This document shows, piece after piece, positions 25,385 to 50,682 of a stretch of DNA of 64,000 bases. Source of the stretch: Candidatus Saccharimonadia bacterium (GTDB taxonomy: Bacteria > Patescibacteriota > Saccharimonadia > UBA4664 > JBIOIQ01); the NCBI GenBank assembly GCA_044449985.1, contig JBIOIQ010000001.1, forward strand, positions 280 through 64,279. Direction: 5' to 3'. Below the pieces are notes generated by a model. That model was given only the letters and a program-made list of their open reading frames with translations. It made no database searches and was not told the origin of the DNA. Position numbers and translations under genes: made by a program. Numbering within the stretch: the stretch's first letter is position 1; every line of letters starts with the position of its first letter.

Positions 25385-26845
25385 ATGCTCCTGAAAAAAT
25401 CACGACACATCTCAAAGTCTCCAAAGCTTTTGGTAACTTCAAAAAAGGTCCGTCCAATTGCCCTCGCGACATTAGTTGGAGGACTTGTTATTCTTGGCAT
25501 ATTCTTCATTTTCTTTTCTCACGCCGCATCGTGCACTTTAATGGGAGATGCGAATTGCGATGGTGTTGTTAATATCATCGACTTGAGTATTCTTGCTTCC
25601 AACTGGGGCAATACCACTGCTACTTGGAATATGGGTGATTTTAATGGTGACGGCATAGTAAATATTCTTGATTTATCAATTCTCGCTGCAAATTGGAATC
25701 AAACTAGTACATCAACATACGCGGTTCCAAGTAATATCCCAGCCGATTGTTCGGTTGAAGTTTCAGCTCAGTTAAACGCATGGATTGCAAGCGTGCCGGA
25801 TGGAACGGCCAATGCTCAGACTATGATTGAATTCCCAGCAAATGCTTGTTACTGGGTAGATAATGCCGTAGCCCTTGGTCAAATAGTTGTCAATCAATCC
25901 AACGCCCCTCAGAATGGACGGCACTATCTTTACATTGAGGGAAACAATGCCACACTCAAAGCCAAAAACCTGGCACCGGTCAATACCAAACGTGACGAAC
26001 TGGCTATCATATCCGGTAGCAACATTACCGTTCACAACCTGAACGCTACAGGCGTCAATACAGTCGCGTCGTATACACCCCAGTATGAACACGATGCCAA
26101 CTTCAGTATCACCGGCTCCCATTACGTAACGCTCGATGATGTCCACGGCTCGGATGCTTACGGCGATTGTGTCGATACCGGACCTGCGGAGTTTGTTTGG
26201 CCCGATTCCGAAATGGTGCAGAATTTCACACTCAAGAATTCTTCTTGCAATACTACCGGCCGTATGGGCATTGACTGCACCGGCTGCAACGGCTTTACGG
26301 TTGATCACAATAGTTTCGACAACATTGGCTACCATGCCTTTGACCTGGAAGTAGAAGACGCTACGTGGCAAGCTCATAACGTCTACTTTACTAATAATAC
26401 GATTGGGTATGTGTATCTCTCAGCAGTTTCGGATGCAGGTCAAAGTTATGACCAGCAAAACATTAATATTACAGGCAATAACGAAACGTCAAAAGCGGTC
26501 ACATGCTACCAGCCTGTATATATAGATTGGGGTGGGACGACCGAGAACCGGCCAGGGCCGTATGTTATAACCGGAAATCACTTCAATACCGCAAGCGATG
26601 TCGTGTGGATCAATCATGCCAATAATGTGACCGTCCAGAACAACACTACAACGTACTGGAACGGTGGGTGTGGCCATTCCGGCGTCGAGGCCAGCAGTTC
26701 AGTTGGAGGTAACGTGTCTAACAACGATTTTACTGGGGAAGATACGTCGTATACTAACTTAGATGGGTTGGCCAGCGGTTATACGGTCTGTGACAATAAA
26801 TTAACCCCTGGCGGTGCTTTTGACCAGCCAGCAGTATGTCATTAA
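25385..26845 (+). CDS. Secreted right-handed beta-helix (pectate-lyase-like, PbH1 repeats) protein with N-terminal tandem dockerin repeats
   Basis: An N-terminal TM/signal anchor is followed by two Ca-binding dockerin segments (DANCDGVVNIIDLSILASNWG and DFNGDGIVNILDLSILAANWN). The rest consists of repeated N..N/T-rich beta-helix rungs. Confidence 0.7.
   Translation: MLLKKSRHISKSPKLLVTSKKVRPIALATLVGGLVILGIFFIFFSHAASCTLMGDANCDGVVNIIDLSILASNWGNTTATWNMGDFNGDGIVNILDLSILAANWNQTSTSTYAVPSNIPADCSVEVSAQLNAWIASVPDGTANAQTMIEFPANACYWVDNAVALGQIVVNQSNAPQNGRHYLYIEGNNATLKAKNLAPVNTKRDELAIISGSNITVHNLNATGVNTVASYTPQYEHDANFSITGSHYVTLDDVHGSDAYGDCVDTGPAEFVWPDSEMVQNFTLKNSSCNTTGRMGIDCTGCNGFTVDHNSFDNIGYHAFDLEVEDATWQAHNVYFTNNTIGYVYLSAVSDAGQSYDQQNINITGNNETSKAVTCYQPVYIDWGGTTENRPGPYVITGNHFNTASDVVWINHANNVTVQNNTTTYWNGGCGHSGVEASSSVGGNVSNNDFTGEDTSYTNLDGLASGYTVCDNKLTPGGAFDQPAVCH
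25546..25706 (+). repeat. Dockerin-module coding repeat (copy 1)
   Basis: About 80% nucleotide identity to the reverse complement of 41690-41850, including identical runs GATTTATCAATTCTCGCTGCAAA and GGTGATTTTAA. Confidence 0.6.
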
Positions 26846-34071: not shown

Positions 34072-35721
34072 TTGATGAATGATAACCATCCGTCAAAGCT
34101 AAAGTCATTTCGTTCCCCTCAAACCGTTATTGCAAGGTTTGTTGCCGGGCAAACGGTCAAGACTGCGGCGTTCTGGGCACTTATTTTTGGATTTTATGTT
34201 GCTTCCAAATCGTTGGGATTCGCAACCGCCTATCCAACTGCAGCCGGAAGAGCCCACCTGGTTAGTTCGCTGGGGTCAAACATCGGGCTGATTGCGATCT
34301 TAGGGAAACCCCAACTAGTATCAACCGTAAAAGGCTGGGCAGCCTGGAATACGCTACTGGTTGTTACCGTTGTGGGAGCCATCTGGGGTCTTTTGCTCGC
34401 GACCAAACGCTTCCGGGGTGAGGAAGCCATGGGTCGCTGGGAAATTCTGTTAAGCGGTTTAACAACGCCTCGAAAGGCCGCTGTCAATGTGCTGGCCGGA
34501 CTAGGTTTTAGTTTCGCCGTGCTGTTGGCTATCACGAGTGTTAGCTTTATCGTGATCGGGCGCATCCATACGGTTGATTTTTCAGTTTCAAGTGCTCTGT
34601 TCTTTGCACTGGCTTCAGTTTTGGGTGCAGCAGAATTTTTAGCAATTGGTAGCCTAGCCTCTCAACTCATGCCCACAAGAAGTCGAGCTGCCAGCCTGGC
34701 GGCGGCAATCTTTGGTATAAGTTTCATCATTCGCGCAAGCGGAGATATATCATCTTATCATTGGCTACTTAATATCTCGCCGCTAGGATGGATTGAGAAC
34801 TTGCAGCCTCTTTCTCATAGTCAACCTATTTGGTTAATCCCAATATTTTCAATGATCACGCTACTACTTCTACTAACTGTGATTTTAGCTGGCAGTCGCG
34901 ATCTAGGGGCGGCAACATTTCCAGATAAAGACACTTCGCGCCCTCACTTTGGTTTGCTTAACTCAACTTTTGCCTCATCGGTGCGGCTGGCTCGGACTTC
35001 AATTATTTCCTGGCTCATCGCCGGGATGGGTATAGCCTACTTTTTTGCAATTCTTACAAGAACGGCTGCTCAAGCATTTCAAGCTTCATTAAGTGCAGAA
35101 AAAGTACTTTCAAGACTGGCACAGGTCTCGCAAGACTTCGGAGCGAAAACTTTCCTGGGAATAATCTTTTTTTTCTTGATGATTTTATTTATGGCATATA
35201 GCGCCAGTGCTCTGGGGGCAATTCGAGAAGATGAAGCTTCGGGTTATCTCGACAACATCATAGTTCGTCCGATAGGGAGGTTACGATGGATCGGTGATCG
35301 AATACTGCTACTCATATCTTCGCTTGTCCTGATCGGAACATTGTCATCTCTGACCGTATGGATTGGTAGCCACGGCCAAACGGGGGGGATTTCCCTCCAA
35401 ATCTTTCTTAGCGCCGGGATTAACAGCCTCATTCCCGCAATCTTTATCGCCGGGCTAGGAATTTTGGCTTTGGGATTCTGGCCCAGATTTTGCTCAACCA
35501 TAACTTTCGGAGTTTTAGCTTGGTCGTTTTTACTTGAAATGGTCAGCTCGGGAATTAATTTAAACCATTGGATTGCTGACACATCTATCTTGCATCATAT
35601 TTTACTTGCCCCGGCCTCATCGCCCAACTGGCATGGCGATCTGATAATTACCTGTATTAGCCTCGTATTAGCGCTCTTCGGAATCTGGAAATTTAATATT
35701 CGAGACTTAGCCAGCGAATAA
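34072..35721 (+). CDS. Large ABC-2-type permease / polytopic membrane protein
   Basis: 549 aa with at least 10 TM helices. It starts 2 nt after the ATPase stop. Confidence 0.6.
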   Translation: MMNDNHPSKLKSFRSPQTVIARFVAGQTVKTAAFWALIFGFYVASKSLGFATAYPTAAGRAHLVSSLGSNIGLIAILGKPQLVSTVKGWAAWNTLLVVTVVGAIWGLLLATKRFRGEEAMGRWEILLSGLTTPRKAAVNVLAGLGFSFAVLLAITSVSFIVIGRIHTVDFSVSSALFFALASVLGAAEFLAIGSLASQLMPTRSRAASLAAAIFGISFIIRASGDISSYHWLLNISPLGWIENLQPLSHSQPIWLIPIFSMITLLLLLTVILAGSRDLGAATFPDKDTSRPHFGLLNSTFASSVRLARTSIISWLIAGMGIAYFFAILTRTAAQAFQASLSAEKVLSRLAQVSQDFGAKTFLGIIFFFLMILFMAYSASALGAIREDEASGYLDNIIVRPIGRLRWIGDRILLLISSLVLIGTLSSLTVWIGSHGQTGGISLQIFLSAGINSLIPAIFIAGLGILALGFWPRFCSTITFGVLAWSFLLEMVSSGINLNHWIADTSILHHILLAPASSPNWHGDLIITCISLVLALFGIWKFNIRDLASE

Positions 35722-36259: not shown

Positions 36260-36274
36260 TAACGCTAATCAAAA

Positions 36275-36296
36275 AGAGGCTTCGGCCTCTTTTTTT
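36275..36296 (+). terminator. Rho-independent terminator
   Basis: AGAGGC-TTCG-GCCTCT stem-loop followed by TTTTTTT, 16 nt after the stop. Confidence 0.7.
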
Positions 36297-36412
36297 GTGC
36301 CAACATACCCACGCGGAAATCCCTTTTCGGCTTACGAATATTTTGGCTGAATATGATGCTTTTTATGGTTCTCAGCAAAAAGTCAGCTTCAAGCGGTATA
36401 ATCTGAAATTGT

Positions 36413-37540
36413 ATGAATAAATACATTGTGAGCCGAACTAAAATAGTCGGGAAAAACACGCTCCATTTGAGCCTGGCTCCCAAAACTCCCGAAGACCGGA
36501 TGAGGTTTTATCCTGGTCAATATGTGGCGCTATCTTACAAGGTAGGTTTAAGAACCTCGCCGATGCGTTGTTTCTCAATTCTTAGTTCGCCGAAAAACGC
36601 CGGAGAACTTCAGTTTGGTATCCGAATTCAAGGCGATTTTACGAGATCTCTAGCGAGTTTAACAATCGGCGAAACGGTACTGGTACAAGGCCCCTTCGGG
36701 GAGTTTGTAATTGATGAATCTTATGATCGAAGCGTAATACTGCTCGCCGGCGGGATTGGCGTTACTCCATTTCTTAGCATGATTAGACACTCAACGGAGG
36801 CCCAAAGGCCTACGCCAATCACCCTTCTCTATAGCTCCCAGTCTCAAGATGATGTGCCGTTTTATGAAGAACTGATTGAACTTGAGCGACTTAATCCGCG
36901 TTTTAGAGTAGCGTTCTTTATTACGAATGGCCCAGTGAGTAAGCTGACACGTGGTCATGTCTATTCCGGAAGGGTTGATGAAGACGTTTTCTTACAGATA
37001 ACAAAAGGACACTTTAACCACTTTAGTTACTTTATCTGTGGCCCTAAAGGTTTCATGAAAGGCATGAAATCGATACTAACCAGCCACCGAACTGATTCAA
37101 ACCGCATCGTCTCGGAAGAATTTTCGCCGTCAAACCAACTGATTGCAAATATTGCCCCAAAAGATAGCGCCTCGCGCTGGACCTATGCCATAAGTGCGGC
37201 TTCGATTGTCGTCGGATCGGCATTCGTTATGTTTGTTGATCTTGCGCGAGTTGTGCCTAAACAACTCCAAGCTGATGCCTCTCAATCGGCCGCCATCACC
37301 CAGTCCCAGTCCACGCCAAGTACGCCTACAAGTTCAGCGAGCTCAAGCGTAACAACTACCCCCTTATCGCAAGCTCAAACGAACACTAATTCAAGCTCAA
37401 ATAGTTCAGCGAGTTCGTCAACCCAGTCTAGTTCAGCACAATCCTCTCAATCGACTGCTTCGAGCTCGACTCCGACGCAAACTACTACGACTCAATCAAC
37501 ACCGACGTATTACCAACAACCCGTCACTTCAGTATCCTAA
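36413..37540 (+). CDS. FNR-like flavin reductase (FAD_binding_6 + NAD_binding_1) with C-terminal TM anchor and Ser/Thr-rich tail
   Basis: Has a FAD-binding R-x-F-S motif (RCFSILSS) and the NAD(P)-binding motif LLAGGIGVTPFLSMI. A hydrophobic helix (AISAASIVVGSAFVMFV) and an 80-aa S/T-rich low-complexity tail follow the catalytic domain. Confidence 0.75.
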   Translation: MNKYIVSRTKIVGKNTLHLSLAPKTPEDRMRFYPGQYVALSYKVGLRTSPMRCFSILSSPKNAGELQFGIRIQGDFTRSLASLTIGETVLVQGPFGEFVIDESYDRSVILLAGGIGVTPFLSMIRHSTEAQRPTPITLLYSSQSQDDVPFYEELIELERLNPRFRVAFFITNGPVSKLTRGHVYSGRVDEDVFLQITKGHFNHFSYFICGPKGFMKGMKSILTSHRTDSNRIVSEEFSPSNQLIANIAPKDSASRWTYAISAASIVVGSAFVMFVDLARVVPKQLQADASQSAAITQSQSTPSTPTSSASSSVTTTPLSQAQTNTNSSSNSSASSSTQSSSAQSSQSTASSSTPTQTTTTQSTPTYYQQPVTSVS

Positions 37541-37583
37541 TGCCAAAAACTTTTGAGCTGATCAACAAAACGAGGGTTCACTA

Positions 37584-38225
37584 ATGCTGCACTCCCTTAC
37601 ATTTGTCCAAAACTTTGGGGGATCAAGCGCGTTTCAGATTGTGGCCGAAAGAGTCAGCGCCTCCTGGCCTTGGTACGTCATTAGAGCGGCTGGTTTTATC
37701 GCTGCCGGACTCATAATAATCCTTATGCTTTCAGGTATTGGGCAAGTTACAGGACTGTCGTATCGGATTGTTGAGCCAATCAAGGCTTGGGCAATTCATA
37801 AGGCCCTCGCAATTGCACTTTGTGTTAGTATTGCAATCCACGTGGGCTTTTTACTAATGGATCATTTTATTCACTTTTCGCTGGCCCAAATTCTCATTCC
37901 CTTTACTTCCACTTACAATAATGGCACAGTCTTTAGCGGACTCGCGCTTGGAGGAGTTGCGATCGCCTTGGGGGTACTGGCGATGTATGGGGTAGTGGTA
38001 ATCGTTTTAAGCTCACTCGGGTGGATTGATTCCAGAAGGAATTTATGGCATCAACTACATTATATATCCTACGCGGTTGCACTATTTGTCTTTCTGCATG
38101 CGCTCTATTCGGGGAGTGATCTAAAATACGGCCTTTCCCGCCAGTTATGGGTAGCAATTGGGCTAGTAATAGTAGTCGGGATAATAAGCCGACTTTGGCG
38201 TTCGGGGACTAAAAAAATAGCCTAA
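37584..38225 (+). CDS. Ferric-reductase-like transmembrane heme protein (MsrQ/YedZ/NOX TM-domain family)
   Basis: 213 aa with 6 TM helices. The bis-heme His pairs show the family spacing: H-x13-H (IHKALAIALCVSIAIHV) and H-x12-H (LHYISYAVALFVFLHA). Confidence 0.65.
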   Translation: MLHSLTFVQNFGGSSAFQIVAERVSASWPWYVIRAAGFIAAGLIIILMLSGIGQVTGLSYRIVEPIKAWAIHKALAIALCVSIAIHVGFLLMDHFIHFSLAQILIPFTSTYNNGTVFSGLALGGVAIALGVLAMYGVVVIVLSSLGWIDSRRNLWHQLHYISYAVALFVFLHALYSGSDLKYGLSRQLWVAIGLVIVVGIISRLWRSGTKKIA

Positions 38226-38283: not shown

Positions 38284-39117
38284 ATGAGGGACTCAACTGA
38301 TAAATCGGCGCATATCCATCATTACCAGCGTCATGCAACATACTCTTATCCGGTTCGGCTGTCCCAACGTATTCACGCTACAGTTACGCTTCCCGTAATC
38401 CTGCTTATATTTACCATTTTGGCGGTGCGGTTTTTCCCGGTATCGCAAAGTAATACTTCAACCCTTGACTGGCACCTAGTAATCTTTTCATTATTATCGA
38501 CGCTTTATCGGTTGCTGATTGCCTACGGCTTCGCCCTGGTTATATCAGTCCCGATTGCGCTTCTAATCAATGTAAATTCCGTGACAGAGCGGTTACTGCT
38601 ACCATTCTTCGACATCGTTCAATCAATTCCAGTTTTGGCCTTTTTCCCTGTCATTATCGCGTTATTTCTGCACTATGGTTTCGTCAACGCGGCGGCCGTA
38701 TTTATCATTTTCTTAAGCATGCTTTGGAATCTGGTGTTTAGTTTAGTCGGTGGTTTGCGAATTATTCCAAGCGATATTCGATCAGCGGCTCAAGTATTTA
38801 ACATCAGGCAAATGGCCTATTTGAGAAAAATAATTCTGCCGGCAATATTTCCATATATAGTCACCGGCTCACTGCTCGCCTGGGCGCAAGGTTGGAATAT
38901 AATAATTGTGGCTGAAGTTCTCCACACCTATATTCCTGGTGGAGGAAGTAGCCTTGATGTCTATGGGATTGGAAGCCTACTAGTGCATGCTTCAGCCAAT
39001 GGACAATCACAAATATTTCTCGCTTCAATTTCGGCGATGGTGATAATGATTGGTCTGATTAACTTCTTTGTTTGGCAAAAATTATTACACCTGGCTGAGA
39101 GGTTTCGGTTTGAATAG
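38284..39117 (+). CDS. ABC transporter permease (binding-protein-dependent, NitT/TauT-type)
   Basis: 277 aa with 6 TM helices and an EAA-like loop. Confidence 0.75.
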   Translation: MRDSTDKSAHIHHYQRHATYSYPVRLSQRIHATVTLPVILLIFTILAVRFFPVSQSNTSTLDWHLVIFSLLSTLYRLLIAYGFALVISVPIALLINVNSVTERLLLPFFDIVQSIPVLAFFPVIIALFLHYGFVNAAAVFIIFLSMLWNLVFSLVGGLRIIPSDIRSAAQVFNIRQMAYLRKIILPAIFPYIVTGSLLAWAQGWNIIIVAEVLHTYIPGGGSSLDVYGIGSLLVHASANGQSQIFLASISAMVIMIGLINFFVWQKLLHLAERFRFE

Positions 39118-39835
39118 TATTATAAGTCTAGCTAAAGTTTCAAAACGTTACTCAGAAAGCGTAGAAAATGCCCTGAGCCAGATATCTCTCGATGTGGCCA
39201 GTGGGGAGTTCTTGGTCTTGGTCGGGCCTTCAGGCTGCGGAAAATCTAGCTTAATTAAAATAATCGCCGGCCTTGAACATGCGAGCTCAGGAGAGATTTC
39301 GGTCCCCCCCAAAGTCTCGATGGTCTTTCAGGCCGGTGCGTTATTCCCATGGTTAAGTGTGGCTGACAATCTAGGTATCGTGCTGGCGGCCCAAAAACTT
39401 CCGCATAACCAAATTATCCAAAAAATTAATCAATATCTCGAGCTCGTCAATTTGCGAGAATTTAGCGATAAATATCCGCGAGAACTCTCCGGTGGCCAGA
39501 GGCAACGTGTGGGGATAGCGAGAGCACTTGCCATTGAACCGGAAGTTCTAATTCTAGATGAACCATTTTCAGCCCTCGATATTAAAACTACCGAAGATCT
39601 GCATAATGACCTACTCAGGATCTGGGAGCTGACCCACCAAACCATTGTGATGGTATCACATTCGATAGAAGAAGCCGTAACGCTGGCTGATCGAATCGTG
39701 CTTATGGATAGTGGGAAGATAATCCAAACCTTTGATCTCTCGCAGTTAAAGCGACCGAGACGTGAGCAGGCTACTCAATTTATCTCTGATGTCCAAACAG
39801 TCAGGCGGAAACTGCTCGAAGTTGCCAAAGTCTAA
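39068..39835 (+). CDS. ABC transporter ATP-binding protein (NitT/TauT-type)
   Basis: Walker A (GPSGCGKSS), signature (LSGGQRQRVGIARAL) and Walker B (LILDEPF). The true start is more likely the TTG at 39110, which has a GAGAGG motif upstream and overlaps the permease stop by 8 nt. Confidence 0.8.
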   Translation: MFGKNYYTWLRGFGLNSIISLAKVSKRYSESVENALSQISLDVASGEFLVLVGPSGCGKSSLIKIIAGLEHASSGEISVPPKVSMVFQAGALFPWLSVADNLGIVLAAQKLPHNQIIQKINQYLELVNLREFSDKYPRELSGGQRQRVGIARALAIEPEVLILDEPFSALDIKTTEDLHNDLLRIWELTHQTIVMVSHSIEEAVTLADRIVLMDSGKIIQTFDLSQLKRPRREQATQFISDVQTVRRKLLEVAKV

Positions 39836-40481: not shown

Positions 40482-41084
40482 TTAGTTTGCCCCGGTACCG
40501 CTGACGATTGGATAGACTAGAAATCCCGGACAAGCTTGGTCGTTATCAGCTACATCTATAGACGCGGTTTGATTAGGAGGATAGACCCGTAAATTCGTGG
40601 CTGCCGCCGAACATTTTCCGACCGGCAGAACTCCCGGATCAGGAAAACTTAAGATTGCAGAGGCTTCCCCGTTTGGAGCCAACGTGACTGCGGCACCACT
40701 GCTGCCACTTCTGGTAGCAGGTGAACCGAGCTGATTACCGCTCGCGTCAACCAGCGAAACACCAGGGTATCCGACCAGCGTACAGCTGAGCTTTCCGACA
40801 TTGGTCAGTATCAAGTTTTTGTAGGTCGTTCCGGCGGCACTACTAGTGGCTGCGAGACTCGCACTGAGACTCGTAGTTACACAACCTGATATCCCGCTAC
40901 TAGGTGGGGAAGTGGCCGGAGTAGGGCTAGGAGATGTTGTTAAGCTCGAGTTTGAGCTGACCGTTGTCGAAGCGGATCGATTGTGCAGTACCAGAAATAC
41001 TCCAAAAGCGATGGCCGCGAGTACTATGAGCACTAAGACGATTTGGAAGATAACGATATTTCGATTCGAATTTACCGGTTTCAT
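40482..41084 (-). CDS. Secreted DUF4232-like protein with Ser/Thr-rich linker
   Basis: Has a signal anchor, an S/T/P linker and the DUF4232-type L.N.G...C.L.GYPGV motif. Confidence 0.5.
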   Translation of the reverse strand: MKPVNSNRNIVIFQIVLVLIVLAAIAFGVFLVLHNRSASTTVSSNSSLTTSPSPTPATSPPSSGISGCVTTSLSASLAATSSAAGTTYKNLILTNVGKLSCTLVGYPGVSLVDASGNQLGSPATRSGSSGAAVTLAPNGEASAILSFPDPGVLPVGKCSAAATNLRVYPPNQTASIDVADNDQACPGFLVYPIVSGTGAN

Positions 41085-41675: not shown

Positions 41676-43160
41676 TCAATAATTTGCAGCGAGAATTGAT
41701 AAATCTGTAATATTTACCACCCCGTCCCCGTTAAAATCACCTTCCGACCAGGTTGCGTTAGTCTTGCCCCAATTAGACGCCAGGATTGAAAGATCAAGAA
41801 TATTCACTACACCATCCCCGTTGGCGTCACCCGGAATTTGGATATTTTTCGATCCTGATATCTCAAGCAGAGTTACATTTGAGCTGGAACTAAAATTGTA
41901 ACTCGTAGCATTGTTGCTTGCTTGAGACGCTAGATTATTAAGATCTGGATGATACTGGGCGACACTCGCACTTTGGGCAAGATTTAGCGTGAGATTTATT
42001 GGACTCGTAGTAATAGCTTGTCTGGTTGTACCATTCCATATATTATCGGCTTCCCAGACCGCCAGCCAGAAAGTCCCATCGCGTTTTTGCAAAAGTACAC
42101 TCGTAGTGGCCGCATCGGTACCAGTTAAACTATAGGTTAAAGCAGCGGGAGTAAATGAAGCCCCGGGGTCACTAAGCAAGCTAATCAGGTTTTCCAATGT
42201 CGTATAAGCTGGGGTCAGGCTCCAATCATCCCTGACTAAACCATACTCCTGCTCTTGAATGGATAACCCGGAATCTGGGAGTTCGTCTAAAAACTCATAG
42301 CCGTATGTTCTTTTTATGCCCAAGCGAAAATTATTAAGAAGCATGCGCGTGTAGTAAGTGGCAAATGTGGGATCACTCACAGGCCAATCCGCCATTGAAC
42401 GCGAGGTAGTAGAATTAAGATCGGCATGATAACCAGTTTCGGTAGCATATAGCGGCTTGTTAGCTGAAATGGTGTTTTGTAAATTCATATTCGCCACAAT
42501 ATTCGATTCAGGATTTCTTCCCCCCGGATAGGGATGGAAATTACCATAATCTAAATAGGAAGACATATCTCCAACTTGAGCGTATGATGCTGACCCTCCT
42601 GTCAGGGTAAAACCGAGAACCGGCACGGAAGAATCATTTGGATCGGCTTTGACTGCTGCATAAAGTGCTTGCTGCTGGGTCTGGGCGATGCTGACCCAAT
42701 TAGTCCAGCCATTGTTATCGACTTCATTCAAGCCTTCAAAAGCATCAGGGATCGGATAATTTTGACTGATCGAGCTGACTATGGCTTGGGCTGTGGTTGA
42801 ACTTGGAATGGGATTAACGATGATGTCTACACCAATTCCATCAGTTTTTAACGAAGCATAAAGCGTCTTTTCTTGGGTAACTCTGGTCGATATCCATGCA
42901 TCTCTAACGTGTCTTACCCCGAGTTGTTGCAACAGGGGAACCCACTGCGACTGTGAGCCGTACTGATCTCCTCCGCCGGTTGCGGCTGAATGAATGTTCA
43001 GTCCAATAGAATCAACGAACGAATCAGAGCTCTTAGCCGTTATGGCGGTTAAATTTGCGGCTTTTGAGTGCCCAATAATCCGATAGCCGATAAGAACTGT
43101 TGCAGCAATTATAAAAATACCGGGAATCCAGACAAATTTATTGGTAGACTGCATAAGCAT
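41676..43160 (-). CDS. Secreted clan GH-A (GH5/GH39-like) glycoside hydrolase with C-terminal tandem dockerin repeats
   Basis: Has a signal peptide, a TIM-barrel region with candidate catalytic glutamates (NEVDN acid/base, TETGYH nucleophile), and a C-terminal DANGDGVVNILDLSILASNWG...DFNGDGVVNITDLSILAANY dockerin pair. Confidence 0.65.
   Translation of the reverse strand: MLMQSTNKFVWIPGIFIIAATVLIGYRIIGHSKAANLTAITAKSSDSFVDSIGLNIHSAATGGGDQYGSQSQWVPLLQQLGVRHVRDAWISTRVTQEKTLYASLKTDGIGVDIIVNPIPSSTTAQAIVSSISQNYPIPDAFEGLNEVDNNGWTNWVSIAQTQQQALYAAVKADPNDSSVPVLGFTLTGGSASYAQVGDMSSYLDYGNFHPYPGGRNPESNIVANMNLQNTISANKPLYATETGYHADLNSTTSRSMADWPVSDPTFATYYTRMLLNNFRLGIKRTYGYEFLDELPDSGLSIQEQEYGLVRDDWSLTPAYTTLENLISLLSDPGASFTPAALTYSLTGTDAATTSVLLQKRDGTFWLAVWEADNIWNGTTRQAITTSPINLTLNLAQSASVAQYHPDLNNLASQASNNATSYNFSSSSNVTLLEISGSKNIQIPGDANGDGVVNILDLSILASNWGKTNATWSEGDFNGDGVVNITDLSILAANY
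41690..41850 (-). repeat. Dockerin-module coding repeat (copy 2)
   Basis: About 80% nucleotide identity to 25546-25706 when reverse-complemented. Confidence 0.6.
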
Positions 43161-47649: not shown

Positions 47650-48150
47650 TTATTTTAAGATTTCCTCTAAGTGATTTCTGGCTTCCGTTAAGATTTCGGA
47701 AGCTTTTTCGCGTTTTTCGTCAGATCCGTCATGCAGAATTTGGCGCGACAAAGAGACAAGCTGCATTAAGGATATTTTAAGCTTAATGACCTTACTCGAC
47801 TTTTTATCGATTGACTCCCATGGAGCTTCAGTGCGCTTATTTTCTGCTTCAGTGCGCCCTAGTTCTGTGATTGTGTAAATTTTTTTACCACCATCTTCCT
47901 TGCCTGATACAAATTCTTGTTCTTCAAGGAGCTGAAGTGTTGGGTATACTGACCCTGGACTCGGTCGCCACATTCCATGACTTTTTTTCTCAAGTTCCTG
48001 AATAATCTCGTACCCGTGCATTGGTTTATCTGCTAGAACTCGTAAAATTATTGGACCGATATCTCCACGTTTAGCTTGCATGCCGTGCCAGCCTCGAAAC
48101 ATACCATGTCCATGCCAATTCTGAGCCCAATCTTCATATTGATCTTTCAT
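47650..48150 (-). CDS. PadR-family transcriptional regulator
   Basis: Winged HTH HGYEIIQELEKKSHGMWRPSPGSVYPTLQLLEEQEFV. The start was set at the Met preceded by AAAGGGGA; the longest ORF extends to 48189. Confidence 0.8.
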   Translation of the reverse strand: MKDQYEDWAQNWHGHGMFRGWHGMQAKRGDIGPIILRVLADKPMHGYEIIQELEKKSHGMWRPSPGSVYPTLQLLEEQEFVSGKEDGGKKIYTITELGRTEAENKRTEAPWESIDKKSSKVIKLKISLMQLVSLSRQILHDGSDEKREKASEILTEARNHLEEILK

Positions 48151-48166
48151 AATTATCCCCTTTCGC

Positions 48167-48211
48167 GATATATCGTGATATATCATCAATTATTATATAC
48201 AGCGATATATT
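48167..48211. promoter_or_regulatory. Candidate PadR operator: three copies of palindromic octamer GATATATC (two tandem, one 7/8)
   Basis: GATATATC at 48167-48174 and again at 48177-48184, separated by 2 nt, with a 7/8 copy (GATATATT) at 48204-48211. These lie immediately upstream of the padR start on its promoter side. Confidence 0.45.
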
Positions 48212-50127: not shown

Positions 50128-50682
50128 ATGAAATACTATGTAGTTTTGCTGCGCGGAATCAATGTCGGTGGTAAGAATATCATTCCGATGGCAGCTTTAA
50201 AGAGCTTTCTCGAAGATTTAGGGTTTAAAAATGTTTCGACTTATATCGCCAGCGGAAATGTGATTTTGGCATCCCAAAAAACTCCAAATCAAATTAAGGA
50301 CCTGATTGAAGCTACACTCACTGCCAAATTTAACCTGAGTAGCGATTTAATTAAAGTTTTAGTGCTAAACCGTCAGCAACTAATAGAAGTAGTCGATAAC
50401 AAACCCGAAGGATTTGGCAACAAGCCAGAAAAATATCACAGTGATGTAATTTTTCTGCTTAATATTAACCAGGAACAGGCTCTAGCAGTTTTTAACCCAC
50501 GAGCAGGCGTGGACAAAGTATGGTTAGGAAATGGCGTGATTTACTCACAACGACTGAGTGCCAAGCGGACTCAAAGCCGGCTTAGTCAAATCATGTCATC
50601 AGTTTTATACAAATCAATGTCCATCCGGACCTGGAACACGACAATCAAATTAGTTGAGATGTTACAAGAAAGAGAACACTAA
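50128..50682 (+). CDS. DUF1697 domain protein
   Basis: Carries the N-terminal signature YVVLLRGINVGGKN. Confidence 0.65.
   Translation: MKYYVVLLRGINVGGKNIIPMAALKSFLEDLGFKNVSTYIASGNVILASQKTPNQIKDLIEATLTAKFNLSSDLIKVLVLNRQQLIEVVDNKPEGFGNKPEKYHSDVIFLLNINQEQALAVFNPRAGVDKVWLGNGVIYSQRLSAKRTQSRLSQIMSSVLYKSMSIRTWNTTIKLVEMLQEREH

Follow-up and report, generated by a model that had tools for sequence, protein, structure and literature searches.

CPR bacteria such as Saccharibacteria are ultra-small epibionts that are considered to live by fermentation and to have hardly any redox machinery in their membranes. The window analysed in this study (the whole 64-kb stretch of DNA) contains two adjacent genes, designated A and B, which encode a flavoprotein with a C-terminal membrane helix and a haem-binding membrane protein. 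Do these two proteins form one transmembrane enzyme, and if they do, where would its electrons go? Direct reading of the sequence located both ORFs where they had been called, on the forward strand and 43 nt apart (Table 1). The protein A sequence is a 100% match to an NCBI entry from Ca. Saccharimonadia named "ferredoxin--NADP reductase". A hairpin followed by a T-run, which was not listed by the consensus scan, is located after the upstream DUF1761 gene and suggests that A and B constitute a separate transcription unit.

Table 1 Features of the A-B locus and of the encoded proteins (positions in the window).
Feature	Position	Strand	Remark
Hairpin + T-run, AAAAAGAGGC-TTCG-GCCTCTTTTTTT	36271..36296	+	3' of the upstream DUF1761 gene; read directly from the sequence
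Gene A	36413..37540	+	FNR-like NAD(P)H:FAD dehydrogenase subunit with C-terminal TM helix and predicted extracellular tail; 375 aa; ORF and Pfam
FAD-binding beta-barrel of A, aa 6-98	36428..36706	+	PF00970; includes R52-x-F-S55 and G74-x-x-T77
NAD(P)H-binding Rossmann domain of A, aa 110-219	36740..37069	+	PF00175, PF08030; includes G113-G-I-G-V-T-P119 and C209-G-P
TM helix of A, aa 256-282	37178..37258	+	Predicted equivalent of TM1 of the 6-TM ferric-reductase fold; hydropathy, AF2
S/T/Q/P/A-rich linker of A, aa 283-366	37259..37510	+	Hypervariable; predicted disordered and extracellular; pLDDT <50
C-terminal motif of A, Y-Q-Q-P-V-T-S-V-S-COOH, aa 367-375	37511..37537	+	Candidate ApbE flavinylation site, Ser375
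Spacer A-B	37541..37583	+	43 nt; ~300-aa ApbE gene at the same position in 68 related loci, none here
Gene B	37584..38225	+	Predicted 5-TM di-haem cytochrome b, ferric-reductase-domain (FRD) superfamily; 213 aa; corresponds to TM2-TM6 of the NOX/FRE fold
Loop of B, S50-G-I-G-Q-V-T56-G57	37731..37754	+	Likened to the NOX "B-loop"; invariant in 120 split homologues, largely retained in 6 fused
Helix of B, aa 65-92	37776..37859	+	His72 (inner haem) and His86 (outer haem), H-x13-H; haem ligation predicted
Helix of B, aa 152-176	38037..38111	+	His159 (inner haem) and His172 (outer haem), H-x12-H; haem ligation predicted

Protein A had been described as a complete FNR-type reductase, and the Pfam matches agree with this description: PF00970 (FAD_binding_6, 50.4 bits) and PF00175 (NAD_binding_1, 53.7 bits) are both above the curated cut-offs, and PF08030 is a secondary match (31.1 bits). 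The RxFS and GGxGxxP motifs are present as R52-C-F-S55 and G113-G-I-G-V-T-P119, together with C209-G-P, and A carries all the elements of FNR-like flavoproteins (R-x-[YF]-[ST], G-x-x-[ST], G-G-x-G-x-x-P, C-G-P, and the C-terminal aromatic E-x-F). R52, F54, G74, G114, I115, G116, P119, G210, E235, and F237 are invariant among 73 homologues in the A family. The closest PDB entries are generic reductases of the FNR family, among them cytochrome b5 reductase, MMOR, BenC, NqrF, and flavohaemoglobin (E-values of 5e-13 to 1e-9), and A falls into no named subfamily, every NCBIfam equivalog match being far under its cut-off. Hydropathy and composition place a single TM helix (approximately residues 256-282) at the C-terminus, followed by an S/T/Q-rich tail of 85-93 aa, much as had been claimed. 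In the AF2 model (maea0ba6a7650; overall pLDDT 82.3), the FNR core scores 95-98, the helix, which spans residues 252-294, approximately 95, and the tail below 50. The helix contains the conserved residues Y258, D276, L277, R279, and P282, and its conservation (0.60) is at the level of the catalytic domains.

B had been described as a protein with six TM helices; hydropathy and the AF2 model (pLDDT 79.9, pTM 0.73) give five (residues 30-56, 65-92, 123-144, 152-176, and 184-209). The two histidine pairs, H72/H86 (x13) and H159/H172 (x12), lie within predicted TM helices and do not vary among 120 split and 6 fused homologues. The expected PF01794 match covers residues 68-169 and is borderline (28.3 bits, cut-off 28; E = 2e-6), and a precomputed PF01794 match exists in most B homologues. 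The fold of B matches di-haem transmembrane reductases, with STEAP metalloreductases near the top of the structural matches; Foldseek E-values were weak (0.17-0.45). B also conserves the extracellular-loop residues D93, P106, N113, and G177-x-D179, and Arg34, near the outer end of the first helix, is invariant. The SGIGQVTG loop, which would face the cytoplasm according to the predicted topology, is probably the docking surface for the FNR module of A.

The relationship between A and B is clarified decisively by fused relatives. When relatives of B were searched for exhaustively with a profile, the top scores went to single chains with an FNR-TM-FRD arrangement, in the same order as A and B, and these chains are equal to A plus B minus the tail of A. 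The fusions are found on four independent contigs, each as one continuous open reading frame, and are unlikely to be artefacts of assembly or gene calling. ApbE-FRD fusions were suspected among the long FRD matches, and Pfam showed that these are FNR-FRD fusions. In the fused homologues P0241 and P0242, the A-type helix runs continuously into the FRD domain. On the basis of this continuity, the helix of A is probably the missing first helix of the 6-TM bundle and not a mere tether. Because the nearest relatives of B are such chains, the A/B pair appears to have arisen when the gene of a NOX-like enzyme with reversed domain order underwent fission in the extracellular loop between TM1 and TM2. 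These sequence comparisons support the view that A and B are halves of one NOX/FRE-like transmembrane electron-transfer enzyme. They might instead be functionally unrelated neighbours, i.e., a membrane-anchored ferredoxin/flavodoxin reductase beside an independent cytochrome b, as the separate ORFs and the generic FNR-family reductases closest to A among solved structures could suggest. However, the operon linkage of A and B is invariable, B is devoid of the first FRD helix while A brings exactly one conserved helix, and the single-chain homologues effectively refute this explanation, which we consider extremely improbable.

The original prediction of a two-component transmembrane electron-transfer system therefore stands in its core, on the evidence of the fusions and the fold of B, but its six-helix B, its simple tether helix, and a tail consisting only of low-complexity sequence do not. 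It was staked on a ferric-reductase family match, on histidine pairs within membrane helices, and on adjacency of the genes in other genomes, and all three were found. The separate polypeptides with the dehydrogenase preceding the membrane protein were also confirmed, and this order is that of the fused relatives. The remark that such a system is unusual for a reduced genome was misleading, because the pair is a conserved class-wide trait and each protein has over 240 homologue clusters. As judged from these homologues, the A/B module is widespread in Saccharimonadia. The split loci were obtained from an alignment-based metagenome scan; a single-sequence scan of species-representative genomes gave three loci. 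We found no account of the module in Saccharibacteria or Patescibacteria in the literature searched.

Compared with NOX and FRE enzymes (SpNOX 8qq7, csNOX5 5o0t, NOX2 8gz3, DUOX1 7d3e, and yeast and plant FRE), the A/B system has the reverse domain order, a chain split after helix 1, and an extra tail and motif on A. In NOX proper, one chain carries the FRD at its N-terminus and FAD_binding_8 and NAD_binding_6 at its C-terminus, whereas A and B are separate and reversed, and A fits FAD_binding_6/NAD_binding_1 better than the NOX-type domains. O2 reduction by A+B is hypothetical. STEAP2-4 (6hcy) are eukaryotic, unsplit enzymes that have a single haem, an FAD bridging the membrane face, and an F420-type Rossmann dehydrogenase (PF03807), which is not FNR-like.

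The tail of A has two contrasting parts. S, T, and Q account for 62 of the last 85 residues, and the linker, which is missing from the fused homologues, has a conservation of 0.26 among A homologues. The tip is the most conserved stretch of A, with a mean conservation of 0.72, higher than that of the catalytic domains. The family consensus is Y-Q-x-P-V-T-S-V-S-COOH, in which S375 is invariant and P370, Y367, and V374 are conserved in 97%, 92%, and 88%, respectively. Across 603 kb of related DNA, no protein outside the A family carries the tip motif, and the possibility that it is a general sorting signal for C-termini was rejected on this ground. AF2 docks the tip motif nowhere (pLDDT 46-56). 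The tip resembles the ApbE motif [ST]-G-A-[ST], although the match is only partial. Compared with D-x-x-[ST]-G-A-[ST], the tip fits at positions -3 and 0, has S/A/R in place of G at -2 and V/I/M in place of A at -1, and lacks the Asp. A-to-V and G-to-A changes in the ApbE motif keep approximately 50% of flavinylation, and losing the Asp matters little (PMC12052999). In a divergent clade, the tail carries S-G-V-T within a Cys-Cys loop, and the element [ST]-[GS]-V-[ST] is common to both tail designs. ApbE substrates with FMN_red C-terminal extensions (PMC11334425) and the engineered Flavin-tag (PMC12052999) likewise carry, on a C-terminal extension without structure, a short motif whose last residue is Ser/Thr, and apbE is adjacent, as in relatives of A. 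The known motifs are [ST]-G-A-[ST], whereas the A family has T-S-V-S at the extreme C-terminus or S-G-V-T in the Cys-Cys loop, on a flexible tether of 85-120 aa.

An ApbE flavin-transferase gene is located between A and B in 68 of the 70 informative split loci, a set that includes the window and whose loci are not phylogenetically independent. Only the window and one other locus, L061, were without ApbE among these 70 (tblastn). The window's 87% relative keeps A, B, and the motif, and its operon is also without ApbE. No ApbE was found in the four fused, tail-less loci examined, all of which are on short contigs. Neither tblastn nor an unfiltered profile/HMM search found ApbE, FMN_bind, or RnfD-like genes in the 64-kb window, so that a flavin step is unsupported for this organism. 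From this distribution, the ancestral operon evidently consisted of three genes, and the window is a rare ApbE-less exception.

The presence of ApbE goes together with the tail of A and with no other feature; none of the other conserved Ser/Thr residues in the A and B homologues tracks with it. The position of ApbE between the two genes in nearly all relatives suggests that a flavin is tethered at the tip of the tail outside the cell, with FMN esterified to the C-terminal Ser of A, which is predicted to be extracellular. Several other candidate sites were set aside: T56 of B, which is present in the ApbE-less fusions and lies inside the B-loop-like docking segment; the N-terminal A-x-S-T of B, in which Ser/Thr is found in just 64%; and T77 and S55 of A, which are generic FNR flavin-binding residues. 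None of the 52 full-length cluster ApbEs has a signal peptide, which creates a topological paradox because the tail of A is predicted to be outside the cell.

We tentatively propose, as a possibility that is on balance doubtful, that Saccharimonadia have a new class of ApbE substrate. In this class, FMN would be carried on the last residue of a disordered, Ser/Thr-rich extracellular tether of 60-120 aa attached to helix 1, and would relay electrons from the outer haem across the cell wall, where minerals, O2, or the host surface would receive them. A different reading is a direct NOX/FRE-like enzyme without a tethered flavin, in which electrons go straight from the outer haem to O2, giving superoxide, or to Fe(III) chelates. 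The tail would then be a wall-spanning spacer and the tip a docking or recognition peptide for the extracellular loops of B, a wall component, or a partner, and ApbE would modify another target or handle FAD/FMN supply. The three ApbE-less operons (the window, its 87% relative, and L061) that retain A, B, and the motif are consistent with this explanation, as are the fused relatives with neither tail nor ApbE, the ApbEs without signal peptides, the partial fit of the tip, and the conserved loop residues of B with its invariant Arg34. It leaves unexplained why ApbE is placed between the genes in 68 loci and in no fused tail-less locus, and why [ST]-[GS]-V-[ST] is found in both tail designs, and ApbE is tracked by no other conserved Ser/Thr. 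We regard a direct enzyme as rather unlikely.

The gene neighbourhood was surveyed in 80 loci, in which no conserved neighbour exceeded 12%. A VIT1 ferrous-iron transporter gene (PF01988, 222 bits) adjoins the cluster in five loci, a GDT1 divalent-cation transporter gene is present in four, and YaaA in five. These neighbours, the VIT1 association also reported in PMC8238504, and the STEAP metalloreductases among the best structural matches are in line with an assimilatory ferric reductase, with or without the flavin, that reduces extracellular Fe(III) for uptake, as proposed for some MsrQ-like and PepSY-like systems. However, approximately 90% of the loci, including the window, are without an iron-transport neighbour, and VIT1 proteins are usually exporters or vacuolar importers; an assimilatory role is a minority possibility in our estimation.

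B could also be an MsrQ-type electron supplier to a periplasmic or extracytoplasmic MsrP-like molybdoenzyme, with A acting towards it as Fre acts towards MsrQ in E. coli. Some sources annotate the homologues as "YedZ / MsrQ haem-binding subunit", and a two-component NOX-like system of MsrQ and Fre has been published (Juillan-Binard 2017, as cited in PMC8238504). MsrPQ (YedYZ) consists of an MsrQ equivalog and an adjacent MsrP gene, a combination that the A/B locus does not have: B matches no NCBIfam model, MsrQ included, and the 80 loci contain no recurrent molybdoenzyme neighbour. The absence of an MsrP-like partner noted in the original prediction was borne out at 22-52 kb of the window. CPR genomes are generally not expected to encode the synthesis of molybdenum cofactor. 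An MsrQ-type role is highly improbable. In the E. coli system of MsrQ and Fre (Juillan-Binard et al., JBC 2017), the FRD cytochrome and the flavin reductase are separate polypeptides, as in the A/B pair. Fre is soluble and genomically unlinked and delivers electrons via free flavin, and MsrQ contains all six helices itself and works for MsrP; unlike Fre, A is predicted to be anchored by a helix of the FRD fold and is co-operonic with B, and there is no MsrP.

The closest parallel is provided by the MsrQ-like flavinylation-associated systems described by Meheust, Huang, Rivera-Lugo, Banfield & Light (eLife 2021, PMC8238504; structural follow-up by Huang et al., mSystems 2024, PMC11334425), which are defined by a PF01794 gene in a cluster with apbE or a gene for an FMN-binding domain. 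Such a gene is present in the orthologous loci and missing from the window. The PF01794 di-haem membrane protein, the PF00175 cytosolic donor, the apbE gene (orthologous loci), the occasional VIT1 neighbours, and the proposed flow from NAD(P)H through haems to an extracytosolic flavin are shared. The NAD-binding module, PF00175 in A, is on a separate chain or, in relatives, an N-terminal fusion. Most of the published MsrQ-like systems are actinobacterial; their FRD protein carries the NAD-binding domain as a C-terminal fusion, and the substrate with the FMN-binding domain is secreted as a protein of its own. The A/B system differs in having the dehydrogenase first, on a separate chain bearing FRD helix 1, and in having no FMN_bind protein. 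The candidate substrate in the A/B family is the nine-residue C-terminal tip on a disordered tail, its ApbE is without a signal peptide, and its lineage is CPR, which is strikingly under-represented for extracytosolic flavinylation (PMC8238504); the window itself is without apbE. We would place the module family with the MsrQ-like systems as a new variant; the window locus itself falls outside their definition.

Taken together, we propose that A and B form one NOX/ferric-reductase-type enzyme that spans the membrane, is driven by NAD(P)H, and is built in reverse order with the fission in the first extracellular loop, and in which electrons would pass from FAD via two haems b to a tail-tethered FMN; we assign this reading a probability of roughly 0.6. 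The cytoplasmic FNR module of A, by analogy with its family, would transfer hydride from NAD(P)H to a non-covalent FAD. The helix of A would act as helix 1 of the six-helix bundle and B would provide the other five, an architecture seen in the fused chains, and their packing would place FAD above the cytoplasmic face of B, close to the invariant SGIGQVTG loop. Single electrons would then move to the inner haem b (His72/His159) and on to the outer haem b (His86/His172). The outer haem may in turn donate to FMN that is esterified to the invariant C-terminal Ser of the long flexible tail. This FMN would be attached by the ApbE whose gene lies between A and B in nearly all relatives, and it would stand in for the separate FMN-binding-domain protein of the actinobacterial MsrQ-like systems. 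From the tethered flavin, electrons would reach an acceptor outside the cell, with Fe(III) or O2 as the likeliest candidates, and NAD(P)+ would be regenerated for the fermentative cell. In the window, where the motif is intact, ApbE may be encoded elsewhere in the genome, or the lineage may use the haem chain without the flavin.

As a clean natural case in which gene fission has divided a membrane domain and one helix has stayed with the soluble partner, the A/B pair helps in understanding how dehydrogenase and haem domains of the NOX type dock. If the tip is flavinylated, the substrate rules of ApbE would be wider, extending to a terminal T-S-V-S without a folded domain, and the tip would be a minimal natural "flavin tag". 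An ApbE without a signal peptide would imply that flavinylation precedes post-translational translocation of the C-terminal tail. Flavinylation of the tip would also explain why signal-peptide-based surveys score CPR as without extracytosolic flavinylation. A substrate of this class would constitute an extracellular electron-transfer route in CPR bacteria, a group believed to have few respiratory chains and little extracytosolic flavinylation. A class-wide conduit from NAD(P)H to the outside would give these cells an outlet for reducing equivalents, a means of mobilising iron, or a source of reactive oxygen where they meet the host.

Genes A and B lie at the predicted positions, 43 nt apart, and each product is 100% identical to a Candidatus Saccharimonadia MAG protein (B, locus tag ACHQUB_00235). 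The proposed FNR-like FAD/NAD(P)H reductase fold of A is borne out by PF00970 (residues 6–98), PF00175 (residues 110–219) and the motifs R52-C-F-S55 and G113-G-I-G-V-T-P119. A also carries C209-G-P and gives a weaker additional match to PF08030 ("ferric reductase NAD-binding"). The solved structures nearest to A are generic FNR-family reductases (cytochrome b5 reductase, MMOR, BenC, NqrF, flavohaemoglobin and the SpNOX dehydrogenase domain), and every NCBIfam equivalog match to A fell far under its cut-off. The expected TM helix and Ser/Thr-rich tail are present: hydropathy places the helix at approximately residues 256–282, and the final 85 residues include 30 Ser, 20 Thr and 12 Gln. The AF2 model is highly confident for the FNR core (residues 1–238, pLDDT 95–98) and for a helix at residues 252–294 (approximately 95), and it shows a disordered tail with an undocked tip. 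B matches PF01794 with 28.3 bits (cut-off 28). It has the predicted x13 and x12 histidine spacings, His72/His86 and His159/His172, and all four residues are invariant in 120 split and six fused homologues. The original prediction gave B six TM helices, its sole descriptive error; both hydropathy and the AF2 model (49 homologues as input, pLDDT 79.9, pTM 0.73) give five (30–56, 65–92, 123–144, 152–176 and 184–209).

When 1.84 billion representative proteins were searched exhaustively with a B-profile HMM, the two best matches were fused relatives, P0241 (494 aa, 268.7 bits) and P0242 (470 aa, 260.8 bits). The FRD is C-terminal in both and in four other proteins, and the single chain runs FAD_binding_6 + NAD_binding_1 – TM – Ferric_reduct, the same order as genes A and B. 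P0241 aligns with residues 1–293 of A (37% identity) and then directly with residues 1–209 of B (50%), and thus equals A + B minus only the A tail. This collinearity indicates that A and B are one NOX-like transmembrane electron-transfer enzyme, as the original two-component reading held, split by gene fission; we place the probability at about 0.85. From the same alignment, the A helix would supply the first of the six helices in the canonical FRD bundle, which would explain why it is as conserved (0.60) as the catalytic domains (0.60–0.63). Asp276 of the helix is invariant, and Y258, L277, R279 and P282 are nearly so. The predicted topology has the FNR module inside, helix 1 running in-to-out, a short outside loop, the five helices of B and the C-terminus inside; the B C-terminus is basic, in agreement with this location. 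P0241, the closest fused relative, carries a canonical ApbE motif, S-G-A-T (residues ~283–300), in the short extracellular loop between helices 1 and 2, at precisely the point that forms the new termini in the split proteins. Its 7.4-kb contig (L091) contains no ApbE gene.

A hairpin with a T-run after the upstream DUF1761 gene implies that A and B begin their own transcription unit. A TATAAT hexamer lies just 10 nt from the A start codon, so that the 5′ leader would be very short or absent.

Features of the A–B module, its surroundings and related loci (window coordinates unless a locus is named)
Feature	Position	Strand	Description
A	36413-37540	+	ORF, 375 aa
B	37584-38225	+	ORF, 213 aa
Hairpin terminator	36271-36296		AAAAAGAGGC-TTCG-GCCTCTTTTTTT + T-run, 3′ of DUF1761 gene; read from sequence, missing from consensus-scan list
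TATAAT hexamer	36397-36402		5′ of A ATG
Polytopic membrane protein	34072-35721	+	549 aa, no Pfam match
NitT/TauT-type ABC pair	38284-39835	+	directly 3′ of B; permease (277 aa), ATPase (255 aa, overlapping start)
DUF4232	40482-41084	-	signal-anchored, S/T-rich linker
Dockerin type I (PF00404)	41676-43160	-	494 aa, 40.4 bits, secreted
Dockerin type I (PF00404)	25385-26845	+	486 aa, 39.5 bits, secreted
PadR	47650-48189	-
DUF1697	50128-50682	+
P0241	L091 2566-4050		fused FNR-TM-FRD
Second flavinylation cluster	L005 7945-10685	-	1.3 kb from FNR-ApbE-FRD operon
Recurrent neighbours (examples; similar loci exist)	L024 2625-3350; L040 3224-3820; L039 2859-3461; L067 1442-2236

On comparative sequence grounds, the ancestral operon has three genes, FNR-TM-tail / ApbE / FRD. 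This order occurs in homologue neighbourhoods and in 80 metagenomic loci collected with the B alignment, and the stop codon of one gene often overlaps the start of the next. After dereplication and tblastn confirmation, ApbE lies directly upstream of the FRD gene in 68 loci, and the FNR gene is also visible in 49 of these; 11 loci were too short to judge. Six loci lack ApbE: four fused (L091, L092, L093 and L095), the window and L061. The relative L009 (87% identical), like L010/L011 (one contig), has "...TYYQQPVTSVS*" immediately before its FRD gene, with no ApbE between. Profile searches of the whole 64-kb window, including an unfiltered one, detected no ApbE, FMN_bind or RnfD-like sequence, and the window keeps a perfect tail motif even with no ApbE in the operon. 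The ApbE of the clusters is a genuine member of PF02424 (174.7 bits) with what we take to be the usual family motifs (GGIGKGY, GGD, ATSG and HHIIDPxTG). A signal peptide is absent from all 52 full-length sequences, although the A tail is predicted to lie outside the cell. A also lacks an N-terminal signal; its C-tail, we speculate, must therefore cross the membrane post-translationally. The second cluster in the related genome L005 encodes an NQR/RNF-like system. It comprises a 506-aa protein in which an RnfD/NqrB-like membrane domain is joined to NAD_binding_1, an ApbE of 247 aa that lacks a signal peptide, and a signal-anchored FMN_bind protein whose linker is S/T-rich and which carries an LITGATFTS motif. 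Here too, the ApbE has no signal although its substrate is apparently extracytosolic. Speculatively, Saccharimonadia may flavinylate before export.

The A tail is hypervariable (conservation 0.26), yet conservation at its tip (0.72) exceeds that of the catalytic domains. Approximately 110 of 120 homologues end in Y-Q-x-P-[VIM]-[TS]-x-[VIM]-S-COOH; a 73-sequence alignment shows an invariant terminal Ser, with P370 and Y367 conserved at 97% and 92%, respectively. In a divergent clade, a loop, C-T-T-T-[QA]-S-G-V-T-T-C, stands in place of the tip, and its paired cysteines favour an extracytoplasmic position. Of 2,840 reading frames in 603 kb of related DNA, only those of A-family proteins carry the tip motif, which rules out a general sorting signal. 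Split relatives have the tail, motif and ApbE, whereas fused relatives have none of these; ApbE is present/absent in 68/3 split and 0/4 fused loci (Fisher p = 3e-5, from counts that are not phylogenetically independent). The remaining conserved Ser/Thr positions show no such link with ApbE: in B, T56 is retained in the fusions, and the N-terminal A-x-S-T is just 64% Ser/Thr. In the motif D-x-x-[ST]-G-A-[ST], it is the final residue to which ApbE attaches FMN; replacing A with V or G with A leaves ~50% flavinylation, omitting the Asp changes little, tags perform best when placed at a terminus, and some ApbEs are cytosolic (PMC12052999). Natural substrates with the motif on an unstructured C-terminal extension are also known (PMC11334425). 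The tolerated substitutions, terminal tags and natural C-terminal substrates make T-S-V-S and S-G-V-T plausible candidate FMN acceptor sites. A tethered-flavin step is nevertheless a tentative proposal for the family, and a less probable one for the ApbE-less window locus.

On the A/B architecture established here, electron transfer, by analogy with the NOX, FRE and STEAP families, would run from NAD(P)H to FAD in the cytoplasmic FNR module of A, then to a putative inner haem (His72/His159) and a putative outer haem (His86/His172). FMN on the tip of the flexible extracellular tail could take electrons from the outer haem and pass them to an external acceptor, taking over the role that a separate FMN-binding-domain protein plays in the MsrQ-like systems of actinobacteria.

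Neighbouring genes hint weakly at a role in iron and, more broadly, at metal or oxidative-stress physiology. Infrequent recurrent neighbours among the 80 loci are the VIT1 iron transporter (5), the GDT1 divalent-cation transporter (4), the YaaA peroxide-stress protein (5), VKOR (5) and a PadR regulator (5); the VIT1 adjacency echoes PMC8238504. Iron-type neighbours are absent in the window, where the module is flanked by ABC transporters, DUF1761, bPH_2, DUF4232 and dockerin proteins. The NitT/TauT-type ABC pair, which also follows the FRD gene in L009, has no substrate-binding-protein gene nearby, and its top NCBIfam matches (SaoP/SaoA, NtrB) are far under their cut-offs. DUF4232, DUF1697 and PadR also occur near the module in the unrelated Saccharimonadia loci L001/L002 and L056, which may be weak conserved synteny. 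The gene for the 549-aa membrane protein follows those for two ABC ATPases and an ABC-2 permease, and its product is probably a permease partner of ABC-2 type that is so far uncharacterised. The dockerins, the 494-aa one having two C-terminal GDxNGDGVVNIxDLSILA repeats, would imply a cohesin partner, the organism's own or its host's.

The general combination of a PF01794 cytochrome, an NAD-binding module and ApbE has been published as "MsrQ-like" systems (PMC8238504), and the MsrQ/Fre pair is an already published two-component NOX-like arrangement. A survey of FRD architectures described bacterial FRD-only and FRD-FAD-NAD forms (PMC3591440) and stated that an N-terminal dehydrogenase, as in STEAP, had not been predicted for bacteria. 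We found no description of the A-B(-ApbE) module in Saccharibacteria in the literature searched. Compared with these descriptions, the reverse order with the dehydrogenase first, the fission inside the membrane domain that leaves helix 1 on the dehydrogenase, the tail whose conserved tip, rather than an FMN_bind protein, is the candidate flavin carrier, and the ApbE without a signal are new. Also new is the class-wide presence of the module in CPR, a group in which extracytosolic flavinylation has been reported to be strikingly under-represented.
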